Assembly (NCBI GenBank): GCA_965263295.1
Contig: OZ253665.1
Coordinates: 416,001 to 480,000 of the forward strand
Length of the DNA stretch: 64,000 bases
From: Spirochaetia bacterium
GTDB lineage: Bacteria; Spirochaetota; Spirochaetia; SP-2023
Reading direction: 5' to 3'
The notes beneath the pieces were generated by a model. That model saw only the letters and a list, made by a program, of their open reading frames with translations. It had not been told where the DNA came from and did not search any database. Below, in pieces: positions 6,081 through 49,070 of this stretch. Numbering within the stretch: position 1 is the stretch's first letter; each line of letters opens with the position of its first letter. The position numbers and the translations under genes are program-made.

Positions 6081-6293
6081 CCCGCCAGCTGAACCTCGAA
6101 AGGGAACCACGAAAGTGCACGAAAGGTTGCGAAAGAGGAACCACGAATTGCACCAAAGTCTACGAAAAGCCACGAAATCTAGACGGGAGGGCCGAATGGA
6201 CGACGGGAGGCGGGGGGGCGTTCAGGCAGCAGGCGCGGTGTTTTAGAATTTTTCATGTTGTTTTGTATTTTTTAGTGTCTTTCGTGGTTACTC
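6081..6293 (+). repeat. Modular CACGAAA/TTTCGTG inverted-arm repeat, copy 1 (complete)
   Basis: Left arm of tandem (ac)cacgaaa units, G-rich spacer, right arm ending tttagtgtctttcgtggttactc; similar to copies at 41.1, 42.0, 46.2 and 48.9 kb. Confidence 0.9.
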
Positions 6294-6494
6294 GGCAAAA
6301 TCGCCGTTGCTGATGCCAATATTGCCTAATATCTTGGCCACTTTTTCCAGCCGCGCATCGGTTTTCGCCATCTGCGCATCGGTCTTTTCCTGCGACCTAA
6401 GTAAATTGGCAATATCTTTACTGTTTTGCGCCAGCTGTTCATCAGTTTTCGCCTGAGAAATGCCAATCTTTCTGAGGATTTCCCTCACTTCATC
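6288..6494 (-). pseudogene. Fragment of a coiled-coil protein resembling DUF3782-type/PD-(D/E)XK-associated proteins, truncated at both ends
   Basis: DEVREILRKIG...KTDEQL...QEKTDAQMAKTDARLEKV...LGNIGISNGDFAE; TAA stop comes from the repeat arm; 5' end abuts the IS remnant. Confidence 0.6.
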
Positions 6495-6600
6495 CGAGGA
6501 ATAGCGACTCGCTATGCCAAAAATAAGGAATCATTCCTGGCCGCCGTACAAATACGGTGTATTGCACTGTGGGCTAGCATCTCGTGACTACACTATCTAG
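6495..6600 (+). mobile_element. IS5-family transposase 3' remnant with right end
   Basis: 6495-6587 reads RGIATRYAKNKESFLAAVQIRCIALWASIS* (IATRY.K...F motif of IS5-family DDE transposases), followed by ctacactatCTAG. Confidence 0.8.
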
Positions 6601-6941
6601 CCAACCGCGTAGCCGCCGATGTCCCCGTTGCGGATACGGATGCATTGCTCAATTGGCAACACGAAAATCTTGCCGTCGCCAATTTCTCCCGTCCGGGCGC
6701 CGGCGATAATGGCATCGATAGTTTCTTGGACATAGGCCTCACTGCTGACGGCAATTTCAATGCGCACCTTCTTCAGTAAGTTCACCTCGTTCTCAATGCC
6801 CCGGTAGTTTTCGGTGTAGCCTTGTTGCTGACCACAGCCCATGACCGTATTGACCGACATCTTGTAGATCTTACGGGCATATAGCTGTTGTTTGACCTTA
6901 TTCATCGCTTCTGGTTGGATGTAGGCGATAATCAGTTTCAT
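6597..6941 (-). CDS. glnK: P-II nitrogen regulatory protein
   Basis: MKLIIAYIQP, T-loop GCGQQQGYTENYRG, KKVRIEIAV, ARTGEIGDGKIFV; linked to amtB. Confidence 0.93.
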   Translation of the reverse strand: MKLIIAYIQPEAMNKVKQQLYARKIYKMSVNTVMGCGQQQGYTENYRGIENEVNLLKKVRIEIAVSSEAYVQETIDAIIAGARTGEIGDGKIFVLPIEQCIRIRNGDIGGYAVG

Positions 6942-6962
6942 AAGATTCTCCTTATACGCAAA

Positions 6963-46171: not shown

Positions 46172-46172
46172 A

Positions 46173-46403
46173 GCCCCCTGAACTGAACCACGAAAGGGGA
46201 CCACGAAAAGCACGAAAGAGTAACCACGAAAAGCACGAAAGACGGCGAAAAGTCACGAAATCTAGACAGGTAAGCCGCGGGGGGCACGACGGGAGGCGCG
46301 GTGTTTTAGAATTTTTAGAATTTTCGTGTTGTTCGTACTTTTTTAGTGTTTTTCGTGGTTAAGGGCCAGGGACTCTGTGGGGGGAACGACGGGGAGCTGC
46401 GGG
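46173..46403 (+). repeat. Modular inverted-arm repeat, copy 4 (complete, expanded left arm)
   Basis: ctgaaccacgaaagggg accacgaaaag cacgaaagagta accacgaaaag cacgaaagacggcgaaaagt cacgaaat ... ttttcgtgttgttcgtacttttttagtgtttttcgtggtta. Confidence 0.92.
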
Positions 46404-46475
46404 ATCATCACCTTCACAGTTTCATAGCTGAGTTCAGCAGTTATTTTTTAATGTTTATTTAATGTTTATTTAAGG

Positions 46476-48959
46476 ATGCTTATGTCAAAGCAAAAACATG
46501 TCATTATTTTCTTTTGCCTGCGGGCTATCTGGGCGACTATTCTGGCCGGGGCTATATTTAGCTGTGACCTGAATAACGATGGCCGGAAATACGACGGGGA
46601 AAGCAAACTGAGTAAGATTAAGGCCCTAGAAGGCTCTTATACCGCCGCCGCGGACGAAGACGCCATCAGTCTGGAGGCTGACCAGCTGCCCTCTGCTGTT
46701 TCTGTTGCGGAGCTGTTGGGCACGGTAGCGCTGCGAGACATCGGGCTGCAAGACTTTGAATTAGAGCTGCGCGCCGATGATTCCACAGGAACCCTGGTGC
46801 TGACGATCTATCCCGATGGGATTCAGCCCCCCGATGGCCCCAATAACATGGTGGGCATGGTGGTAAAGACCATTCACATTCGGGGGTTCCGGGCGGTGTC
46901 AACCTCGCAGGAATCGACCGCTTCGGGGGTGACTTCGGAGTTAAACGATCAGGTCGCTCAATCTTATGAGGAAGAGGTCCCATCTATGGATATCAGGGCT
47001 CTGGGGCTGGGCTGCACGAAGAGGGCCAGTGAAATTTCCGCGTCCGATTTGCCGTCGGCACTGACCGAGAATCTACAAAACAGTGGACAACGTCTGGAAC
47101 TCTTGCCTCACGACTCTGCCGGCGAGCTCTACCTGCTCTTTTTCTATCAAGATATCCCCGATAAATTGGCAGAGATATATGTGGTAAAAGGTTTTAGAAA
47201 GGGACCAGCTGTAAAGGTAGAATTTTCTCCGAAGCCGAAAAATCTGTACCATACGGGGGATGAACTGCCCATTTCCGTAAAAGTTCAAAACCTGCGGGAG
47301 AATAGCTACCTGAAGCACAAGTATCGAAAATCGGGGGTAATGGCTGACGGACTCCCCGTTTTTATATTCTTGGGGTCAGATTTGCTTGGCGTGCTGGCAT
47401 TCCCCTGGGAGACAAGTGAGACGACGAAGATACCGGAGAGCAGGGTTTATTTTGTGAAAGATATTGAGGACGACCATATCTACGAAAGTTCCTTGACTCT
47501 GGAAACACCTAAGTTTATCGACAAAAGCGAGTTAAAAATTGCGACAAAGGCGTATGAAGTAAGGTATGCCAAGCCACATTATGAAGTGAATTTCCAGTTT
47601 GGCTACAAGATGCATCTGAAAGAAATTATCAAGTTTTTTAATCAACATAATAAAGATGAAACAGGATTAGCCCTTAAAGGGGTTTACGCGGAATACTATC
47701 GGCTCTGCAAAAACTACCGGGGCAAGTACCCGAGCTTGGACCCCAATGGTATAAAAAACGAAACGCTGAAGGAGTACGTAACCAAATGCCAAAAAGAGAT
47801 TGAACAAAAAGAGAAGGAAATAGAAGCTCATAAAAGGCATATTAAAAAGTATGGAAAATTTTATAAAATTAGTAGCCTCTGCTTTAAAGTAATTACTTAT
47901 TTTGAACTTGCATGCTCTGCCGTTTCAGTAGCCGCGACGGGAGGAGCCACTTTGCCCGCCTTTTTAACGTCCTTGGCCATTAATGAGGCAATGTGGATGA
48001 GTGATAACATTACAAAAGATGGCAAAGTTACAAAGGAAGAGGGTTCGGCGGAGGAGCTAGTAGAAGGCCCAGCTTCTGCTCCTCCCCTATGGGGGGAGGT
48101 GGATATATCGCCAGATGGTGGGGCGGACACGATTGTAAACATTCCCGCTTTCAAAGCGCATGAAGGCGGACCAGGGCTAGCTGCATGTTTAGGTTCCGGT
48201 ATTAAAACCGGTACTAAAATAATAAAAAAGGGAACCGAACTGTTCCGTCCGTCCGCCGACCCCCCAGAGCTGAAAAGATTCAAGCCTGTAGGTAAGATGG
48301 TACAAAGCAAGGGATTCAAACGAGGATCTCTAATGAGTACATTTGCCAGCGCTGCTATCAATTTTGCCAGCTTTGCCAAATCAAAAAAAATGGCGAAGAA
48401 AGCCAAACGCCTTCAACAAGAGAAACAGCTCTTGGAATTTGAAAGAAAGATGCTGGAAGATTTGGAAAATGATCACGGGGCTAGAGATACAATAATCGCC
48501 TGTGAAGAAGGCAAGGCTCAGGGTAAAGTAGACCTAAAAGGTGACGAGTTTTGCGTAAACGACTCTTATGAGATGATCAAGGAGGAACTAGATGAAAAAA
48601 TGAAAAATAACAGAGATCCGCTGGACAAGGGATATAGAGGTCGCCTCTACAATATAATGTCATGCCGGTGCAACGGCAAAGAAGAATTTATTTATCAAAC
48701 GATCAAATACGACCACAAAGAGTCGGGAGCGCGGATAAATAATTATGCCGATCATTTTTATAAGTTGAATGAACGCGGAGAAATTATTTACAGAGCTTCG
48801 GGAGAGAAAGTCGACAACGTGCTCGACATGTACGGCGATCATTACCCCGGCCTGGAGCACCGCACGAATGACGAGGTGAGCGCCGAAATCGTGGATTACA
48901 CCAATGAGCTGCTGGATGAGCATCCAGAACCGGTAAACTGCTGGAGCCCCGCCAGCTGA
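46476..48959 (+). CDS. Large lipoprotein with two Lipoprotein_17-like repeats, coiled coils and a hydrophobic toxin-like segment
   Basis: Lipobox AIFSC; LPSAV...ADDSTGTL...IRGFR and RASEI...PHDSAGEL...VKGFR; segment SAVSVAATGGATLPAFLTSLAI; stop TGA lies inside repeat copy 5. Confidence 0.7.
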   Translation: MLMSKQKHVIIFFCLRAIWATILAGAIFSCDLNNDGRKYDGESKLSKIKALEGSYTAAADEDAISLEADQLPSAVSVAELLGTVALRDIGLQDFELELRADDSTGTLVLTIYPDGIQPPDGPNNMVGMVVKTIHIRGFRAVSTSQESTASGVTSELNDQVAQSYEEEVPSMDIRALGLGCTKRASEISASDLPSALTENLQNSGQRLELLPHDSAGELYLLFFYQDIPDKLAEIYVVKGFRKGPAVKVEFSPKPKNLYHTGDELPISVKVQNLRENSYLKHKYRKSGVMADGLPVFIFLGSDLLGVLAFPWETSETTKIPESRVYFVKDIEDDHIYESSLTLETPKFIDKSELKIATKAYEVRYAKPHYEVNFQFGYKMHLKEIIKFFNQHNKDETGLALKGVYAEYYRLCKNYRGKYPSLDPNGIKNETLKEYVTKCQKEIEQKEKEIEAHKRHIKKYGKFYKISSLCFKVITYFELACSAVSVAATGGATLPAFLTSLAINEAMWMSDNITKDGKVTKEEGSAEELVEGPASAPPLWGEVDISPDGGADTIVNIPAFKAHEGGPGLAACLGSGIKTGTKIIKKGTELFRPSADPPELKRFKPVGKMVQSKGFKRGSLMSTFASAAINFASFAKSKKMAKKAKRLQQEKQLLEFERKMLEDLENDHGARDTIIACEEGKAQGKVDLKGDEFCVNDSYEMIKEELDEKMKNNRDPLDKGYRGRLYNIMSCRCNGKEEFIYQTIKYDHKESGARINNYADHFYKLNERGEIIYRASGEKVDNVLDMYGDHYPGLEHRTNDEVSAEIVDYTNELLDEHPEPVNCWSPAS

Positions 48960-49070
48960 ACCTCGAAAGAGTAACCACGAAAGTGCACGAAGACTACGAA
49001 AGGGCACGAAATCTAGACGGGGGAGCCGCAGGTGGCACGACGGAGAACTGTGGGAGGAACGACGGGCCAG
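48948..49070 (+). repeat. Modular inverted-arm repeat, copy 5 (left arm and spacer only)
   Basis: First 22 bp cccgccagctgaacctcgaaag are identical to 6081-6102, then agtaaccacgaaagtgcacgaagactacgaaagggcacgaaatctagacggggg. Confidence 0.9.

Follow-up and report, generated by a model that had tools for sequence, protein, structure and literature searches.

Dispersed inverted-arm repeats linked to a GxxExxY nuclease gene as probable recombination hot spots in a Spirochaetia genome

Introduction

Several described systems pair an enzyme with short repeats, and they are the background for a repeat family that we report here from a Spirochaetia bacterium. The family was noticed in a 64,000-nt stretch of DNA (the window; C1:416001-480000 of the single 2,407,850-nt contig C1 of genome G000, 92.6% complete). 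Its unit consists of a left arm of CACGAAA-type words, a G-rich spacer, an inverted right arm and a linker, and we relate it to a gene for a GxxExxY nuclease. The original prediction for this stretch had described five co-oriented copies and interpreted them as a non-autonomous mobile element or a recombination site that shuffles cargo by means of a trans-acting enzyme.

The closest published counterparts are the Ssn nucleases with their NTS/SRM repeats and the REPIN/RAYT elements; a description of the present nuclease-repeat pair was not found in the literature searched. Ssn is a GIY-YIG enzyme and NTS a hairpin of ~30 nt, and domestication has been proposed by the authors (PMC11893778). As in that system, a small single-domain nuclease gene is flanked by its own repeat, and many gene-less copies are clustered beside predicted surface-protein genes (a lipobox pattern of our own making occurs in 24 of 115 repeat neighbours vs 37 of 1674 other genes). 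In contrast to Ssn/NTS, our candidate enzyme has a PD-(D/E)XK domain, and arrays of a 7-nt arm word surround a spacer of 50-200 nt. With REPIN/RAYT elements, as presented in the accessible text of PMC3116915, the repeats share hairpin-capable inverted doublets, tandem arrays and a single enzyme gene beside the repeats. Unlike in that system, the modules are mosaic and a search of G000 for a RAYT transposase (Y1/HUH, PF01797) gave 0 matches. REPIN doublets are described there as randomly spread over extragenic space, whereas ours show a strong association with paralogs.

The candidate enzyme belongs to the PDDEXK_3/GxxExxY family (PF13366, TIGR04256). The function of PDDEXK_3 is listed as 'Unknown' in the available sections of PMC3424549, and 10.1101/2021.01.26.428298 names the domain. 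Neither flanking repeats nor a recombination role of this family was found in the partly accessible sources searched, with supplements and subscription papers outside the search. For Borrelia vlsE, G-rich direct repeats have been suggested to promote recombination (available part of PMC3585125). Strand-specific G runs beside variable lipoprotein sequences are common to vlsE, to the extent that this source describes it, and to our genome; unlike vlsE with its one expression site and silent cassettes, the repeats here are dispersed, intergenic and linked to a nuclease. Integron arrays (attC/IntI) hold single genes between direct, strand-asymmetric imperfect inverted repeats. The arrangement in our genome is similar and includes a toxin-antitoxin pair as cargo. 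In contrast to integrons, an integrase was not found above cut-off (TIGR02249, best 71 bits, cut-off 265), the two tyrosine recombinases of the genome lie far from the arrays, the joints do not fall at one base and the cargo keeps its own upstream regions.

Results

The repeat family and its nuclease gene

The family comprises about 70 loci and ~21 kb of the 2.41-Mb chromosome. The count is 70 loci by pattern, 69 blocks with 21,028 nt by shared words and 71 loci with two missed sites added; a profile of the unit (225-position model built from 55 complete units in 41 blocks) adds three more weak pieces. In the unit of ~225 nt the left arm has four CACGAAA-like words, the spacer is variable in length and the right arm terminates in TTCGTGGTTAC. 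Genome-wide, the words of the left arm are spaced by 9 nt in 83, by 10 nt in 213 and by 14 nt in 58 of 363 cases. The blocks represent sections of such units arrayed head to tail. A start at the head of the left arm was found for 49/69 blocks, while the 3' ends lie in the linker (43, a class inflated by the edge of the model), the spacer (22) or the right arm (4). The spacer diverges more than the arms (mean distance 0.30 vs 0.14 and 0.07).

A single GxxExxY gene (PF13366/TIGR04256, PD-(D/E)XK) is present in the genome at C1:1901341-1901740, on the - strand. It sits in the largest array of the family (4.3 kb, C1:1900075-1904390), 1.4 Mb from the copies in the window, and a right arm follows directly behind its stop codon. 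The 133-residue product matches TIGR04256 with 148.7 bits (cut-off 35; E 8e-44), and residues G34, E37, Y40, D77, E87 and K89 (numbering from the residue after the start) are intact. Against seven homologs, the proportion of nonsynonymous differences (pN) is 0.10-0.17 vs 0.67-0.98 for synonymous ones (pS). A structure model with a pLDDT of 88.6 has restriction-endonuclease-like folds as top matches, with Z up to 7.9 and none of at least 8. Among resolvases, Hjc reached a Z of 6.3 (root-mean-square deviation 3.3, 85 aligned), below the best match, and T7 endonuclease I an E of 1.6 by sequence; a search of the ESM Atlas gave no usable match. A single-domain GIY-YIG protein was not found in the genome, the sole GIY-YIG match being a 687-aa frame 256 kb from the nuclease array. 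Directly upstream of this array (L001:4482-6563) lies a gene for a predicted lipoprotein with five near-identical 95-residue repeats. A partial four-helix-bundle frame (TIGR02436) at C1:61732-61866 has no arms.

The arms recur around related genes elsewhere. In the best 80 of 303 homologous loci in other genomes, the arm word stands beside the gene at 70 (upstream 68, downstream 66), with a density of 14.9 per kb vs 0.42 further out. Nine of the other ten loci have a one-letter variant (CGCGAAA or CACGGAA), which brings the genes with the word or such a variant to 79/80. These arms enclose the gene, overlapping start codons and following the stop. Read as codons, histidine is CAC in 51/51 and glutamate GAA in 47/48 cases within the arms, but only in 12/33 and 125/207 cases within the gene body; therefore, the constraint acts on the nucleic acid. 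Taken together, it is nearly certain that the repeats descend from a GxxExxY nuclease cassette, whose arms they represent in gene-less and tandemly amplified form. A link between such arms and small GxxExxY genes had been put forward in the original prediction, which also advised a search for copies enclosing a nuclease gene; the gene within the largest array and its homologs bear out both. The trans-acting enzyme encoded elsewhere that had been postulated now has a candidate, as judged by its sequence, in this distant nuclease gene.

Two side observations concern the surroundings of the homologous genes. The gene after the nuclease often belongs to restriction-modification (L012-L091): HsdM in L012 and L013, HsdR in L014 and a methylase in L019 (four checked by Pfam, with many others sharing those N-termini). 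The cassette at L019:827-5513 lies between two tandem PF01555 methylase genes, and in this locus as well as in L133, L135 and L137 (G001) DNA-methylase genes of this family contain a left arm as part of their reading frame.

For a wider comparison 41 genomes including G000 were used, kin among them not being independent. At least two arm hits occur in G000 (159), G001 (20), G002 (10), G019 (6) and G033 (2). Four of these five (G000, G001, G002 and G019) have the GxxExxY gene vs 6/36 genomes with at most one hit, and G003 has neither gene nor arm hit. The 50-nt right arm is absent from the 40 relatives at up to 3 mismatches, and neither the spacer nor the linker motifs turned up in 619 kb of foreign loci. 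On these sequences, only the arm word is common to other genomes, and spacer and linker are particular to G000.

In the congener G002, 8/9 fetched arm regions lie among paralogous genes, three of them beside homologs of the coiled-coil family described below. The ninth (L147:3688-3993) retains an intact left arm and, of the matching nuclease subfamily, only a truncated gene start; the intact GxxExxY gene of this genome (L159) belongs to a distant subfamily without these arms in the fetched DNA. G001 is mixed, with some hairpins beside duplicated genes and others between genes with single G000 orthologs. Around the HAD and dnaE genes that flank copies in the window, G001-G003 have other neighbours and no arms, and are too rearranged for a comparison of filled and empty sites.

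A CRISPR array, which had already been discounted, is ruled out by mosaic units, recurring spacer modules and the lack of an Rfam match. As regards Rfam, which the original prediction had named for a search, the window has no match at gathering scores and the first 14 kb of L001 none at E<=0.1.

Association with paralogs and signs of recombination

Gaps between genes were evaluated, paralogs being defined by at least 60% identity and control gaps by a length of at least 100 nt. A close paralog adjoins 46/70 repeat-bearing gaps vs 54/877 other gaps (42/64 vs 58/883 with an earlier site list); without the cluster at 1.90-1.93 Mb it is 34/56 repeat gaps. Conversely, 38/78 genes with a close paralog adjoin repeats, and four families are wholly element-adjacent (9/9, 7/7, 5/5 and 3/3 members, the last including gene C of the window). 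The prediction that the repeats are restricted to accessory DNA therefore stands as an enrichment. It fails as a rule, since 24/70 gaps have no close-paralog neighbour; by our reading about half of these are still next to the nuclease gene, a predicted lipoprotein gene, a gene remnant or a toxin-antitoxin gene, the rest lying between ordinary-looking genes.

Of 148 ends of dispersed duplications, 33 fall no more than 40 nt from a repeat, compared with a mean of 1.6 and a maximum of 18 under circular shifts (family members not being independent). Several genes lie between direct repeat copies. Shared cargo is found for seven families on the 5' side and seven on the 3' side, hence a polar, one-ended capture of cargo was rejected. 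Duplicated DNA of other kinds was also seen. A second dispersed family of decayed 300-800-nt repeats (C1:11921, 20838, 107895, 558653, 1505133 and others), insertion-sequence-like by our reading, lies mostly far from the elements. A phage-like 3.5-kb segment is duplicated at 96% (C1:726107-729583 and 1914960-1918436), and one copy is cut by an element.

The modules of the unit have separate histories. Across 55 units, distances measured in one module do not predict those in another (rho -0.02 to -0.08 among left arm, spacer and right arm); between the odd and even columns of a single module the correlation is 0.23-0.53. In a tandem array of eight coiled-coil genes the gene blocks differ by 0-13 substitutions in ~520 nt; the seven intervening repeats range from 162 to 429 nt and form 0/21 identical pairs. 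Two of the gene blocks are identical over 520 nt, and their repeats measure 295 and 429 nt. A 2,565-nt duplicate (99.8%) starts in a left arm of the nuclease array and shares 231 nt of the element.

Element ends are ragged, and some joints show microhomology of 5-7 nt. A strict test on 11 distinct joints gave 0, 0, 0, 1, 2, 2, 2, 2, 5, 6 and 15 nt. Four were discarded, since part of the element persists in the partner; this leaves at least 5 nt at 2/7 valid joints (0.4% expected for each); microhomology was thus rejected as a general rule, four or five further joints being recognized by eye only. In agreement with the original description, a target duplication was not found in 22 elements, where the longest shared word averages 4.8 vs 5.2 in mismatched pairs. 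The genome contains recA and ruvC.

The five copies in the window

All five copies are present on the + strand where they had been described, as confirmed by the sequence and by the unit profile. The copies and their neighbours are as follows.

4552..5916, +: major facilitator superfamily (MFS) transporter, upstream neighbour of copy 1; best NCBIfam match EmrB/DHA2, below cut-off
6081..6296, +: copy 1; 22-nt 5' stretch, doubled left arm, G-rich spacer, right arm, linker stub CTCGGC (6291-6296)
6291..6488, -: 5' remnant of a coiled-coil gene; the family has five longer copies elsewhere, each beside a repeat
40394-41149: HAD hydrolase reading frame; its 3' end is the first ~50 nt of copy 2
41099..41395, +: copy 2; one complete unit with linker, then the beginning of another
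41429..41931, -: type II toxin-antitoxin pair between the direct copies 2 and 3
41429-41692, -: ParE/YoeB-like toxin of this pair
41689-41931, -: Phd/YefM antitoxin of this pair
42013..42118, +: copy 3; permuted, with end of right arm, linker, short left arm and spacer start
42133..42392, +: non-coding block of 260 nt; 92% similarity to the upstream region of the gene-C paralog at C1:2401297
42416..44083, +: gene A, predicted lipoprotein with lipobox pattern; no Pfam/NCBIfam family
44105..46171, +: gene B, predicted lipoprotein; no Pfam/NCBIfam family
46173..46403, +: copy 4; left arm expanded and spacer short, followed by right arm, linker and a piece of spacer with CTGCGGG at its end
46476..48959, +: gene C, predicted lipoprotein; stop codon inside the 5' stretch of copy 5
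48948..49070, +: copy 5; left arm plus an incomplete spacer, right arm absent; ends 9 nt from the dnaE stop
49079-52624, -: dnaE, abutting copy 5

The profile matches copy 1 at 6102-6135 and 6135-6298 (E 7.7e-41), copy 2 at 41101-41331 (E 1.7e-60) and 41339-41392, copy 3 at 42011-42055 and 42063-42105, copy 4 at 46219-46380 (E 2.3e-36) and copy 5 at 48970-49049 (E 2e-15); the rest of the window has no match. Likewise, 18/19 CACGAAA words on the + strand of the window fall inside the copies. The build that had been proposed, of arms, spacer and linker, holds overall: copies 1, 2 and 4 have a full left arm, spacer and right arm. It does not hold throughout, for the full linker GGGCCAGGGACT occurs in 3/5 copies (41315, 42037, 46363), copy 5 is without a right arm and copy 3 starts at one. 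Every copy has at least one accessory or broken neighbour gene, but copy 2 also overlaps the HAD gene and copy 5 abuts dnaE.

Two copies reveal their joints. Copy 1 is joined to the middle of the coiled-coil gene via the 6-nt microhomology CTCGGC; the linker contains this word, and so do the longer paralogs at the corresponding position. The terminal CTGCGGG of copy 4 is also present at the matching place upstream of an element-free paralog. The 22-nt 5' stretch (6081-6102 and 48948-48969) is common only to copies 1 and 5, 43 kb apart, and has no further occurrence in the genome; it may be the record of a local rearrangement. The MFS transporter next to copy 1 is DHA2-like and has a GC content of 0.57-0.61 vs 0.49 for the genome, and is possibly acquired. 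Genes B and C show no BLASTP relationship to each other. Gene C has two paralogs (54-55% identity; C1:1688148-1690739 and 2401297-2403834), each with a repeat at its 3' end. The paralogs are 96-100% identical over the first 1.4 kb and only 44-57% alike near 1.6-2.0 kb, where they resemble antigenic variants in having a variable segment.

Four of seven sample runs were compared once over positions 39000-51000 of the window. In X1 (sample S1, from which the assembly may have come) the unique parts are identical to the assembly and contigs run into copies 2-4; consequently, the repeats are not an assembly artefact. Contig depth, which does not equal the share of cells, is 67-70 for flanks and cargo and 51 on the dnaE side in X1. 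In X3 (sample S2 of the same study) it is 115-123 for the flanks, 98 for the toxin-antitoxin piece, 20-25 for gene A and 39 for gene B, and an alternative start of gene A has a depth of 74; contigs break at the repeats, which hides any empty sites. In X4, from another study, gene A shows 81 differences and 19 gaps, the flanks 6 differences and 1. Thus, the cargo between copies differs between samples, and the pattern fits strain-variable cargo with the outer repeats retained. Joints between repeat copies in the sample contigs were not accepted as excisions, because other genomic copies give the same joints.

Strand bias and folding

With origin and terminus inferred from GC skew, 51/65 sites (37/51 without the cluster) lie on leading-strand sequence, compared with 1026/1918 genes (53%) called with our own open reading frame caller. 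The elements have a GC skew of 0.38 vs 0.05 and hold 57/129 G4Hunter regions in 1.2% of the genome. Among arm-arm mismatches, G:T occurs 253 times on the top strand vs 21 times on the bottom strand. Since the homolog arms lack this bias (71 vs 85), it is a local trait, and a family-wide strand-specific hairpin was rejected. As single-stranded DNA the inverted doublet folds into a hairpin (top strand of 53 unique units, mean z -2.9). RNA folds are more stable for the top than for the bottom strand in 53/53 of these units (mean z -4.2). The DNA fold of copy 1 alone is no better than those of shuffles (z 0.64).

Discussion

The repeats are, very probably, recombination hot spots. We favour this over a discrete transposon because the ends are ragged, cargo lies on both sides and the modules are reassorted; of the two options originally offered, the recombination site fits and the discrete non-autonomous transposon does not. 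We further propose, with somewhat better than even confidence and on the sequence evidence at hand, that cutting by the nuclease triggers the recombination. That the enzyme reads and breaks the arms is inferred from linkage and conservation. The nuclease would recognize the roughly turn-spaced arm words and cut or nick at or near them. RecA-type repair with template switching between copies would then rewrite the element, and the same repair could copy, delete or move a neighbouring gene. Such outcomes would survive mostly beside dispensable and surface-protein genes.

Several observations weigh against a role of the nuclease. At two near-invariant columns the enzyme has an unusual residue (K16 instead of E, A76 instead of P), and the 5' arm of its own gene is decayed, with 16-22/30 nt like the homologs, which are 24-29/30 alike among themselves. 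Six class-level relatives have the gene and at most one hit of this arm pattern. G002 keeps arms among paralogs although, in the fetched DNA, its matching nuclease is truncated. The breakpoints do not cluster at one base. Arm and gene are physically linked, and co-occurrence is no proof of recognition; moreover, the G-rich spacer alone could be recombinogenic, given the elements' share of the G4Hunter regions.

These points lead to the rather unlikely, yet serious, alternative that the repeats are passive hot spots of cassette origin which now rearrange without the nuclease. In detail, and with the same reserve, hairpins and G-rich tracts on the lagging-strand template would stall forks, RecA action, slippage and microhomology joining would follow, and purifying selection would clear copies near core genes. 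The leading-strand preference, the GC skew, the local G:T bias and the microhomology joints are in line with this, as are the decayed 5' arm and the arm pattern of G002, and G4 DNA has been suggested for vlsE switching in the accessible part of PMC3585125. The strand bias fits exposure of the top strand as lagging-strand template, which is our inference, and it supports passive rearrangement as much as a nuclease-driven one. Passive rearrangement does not account so readily for a nuclease gene that is intact, conserved and placed inside the largest array, for an arm-word spacing that is kept in ~70 loci while the spacer diverges more, or for the lack of both gene and arms in G003.

Two further explanations fit worse than either nuclease-triggered or passive recombination. 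A precise non-autonomous transposon resembling a miniature inverted-repeat transposable element (MITE) or a REPIN, with the unit moved by the nuclease and cargo between two copies carried as a composite transposon, would explain why most blocks start at the left-arm head, the 55 complete units, the genes between direct copies and the arms enclosing the homologous genes. It is nevertheless improbable in view of the missing target duplication, the 3' ends spread over spacer, right arm and linker, the permuted and partial copies, the mosaic modules, the absence of RAYT and the lack of cargo polarity; an insertion-sequence-derived MITE was rejected for want of a target-site duplication and of fixed ends. 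We consider it slightly less probable still that the repeats act at the RNA level or by protein binding, as terminator, processing signal or autorepression site, and reached accessory DNA by hitch-hiking with duplicated transcription units. Such a role is suggested by the more stable top-strand RNA folds, by the location of 46/71 blocks no more than 400 nt from where a gene in the same orientation ends and by the overlap of homolog arms with start codons and their place behind the stop. On the other hand, the homolog arms show no coding-strand bias, both neighbours are on the opposite strand at 9/61 sites and orientation follows the replichore, the DNA fold of copy 1 is unremarkable and rapid module exchange would be left unexplained.

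Returning to nuclease-triggered recombination, it is conceivable, albeit tentative, that a domesticated PD-(D/E)XK nuclease and its own arms form an undescribed shuffling system in which one enzyme gene cuts ~70 sites and so duplicates, deletes and exchanges surface-lipoprotein and toxin-antitoxin cassettes throughout the chromosome, with the arm word as specificity code. With equal caution, this might add a third pairing of nuclease and repeat to RAYT-REP and Ssn-NTS. GxxExxY proteins occur commonly in bacteria, and their function is listed as unknown; the present genome supplies a candidate DNA target and a visible genomic consequence, namely repeats that turn over far more rapidly than the intervening genes. 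If the enzyme cuts the arms, it would be a 133-residue nuclease with a simple, variable word code. This would explain how predicted surface proteins diversify in a small-genome bacterium without a dedicated recombinase, and the arm word would be readable as a specificity code for a family spread over many phyla.

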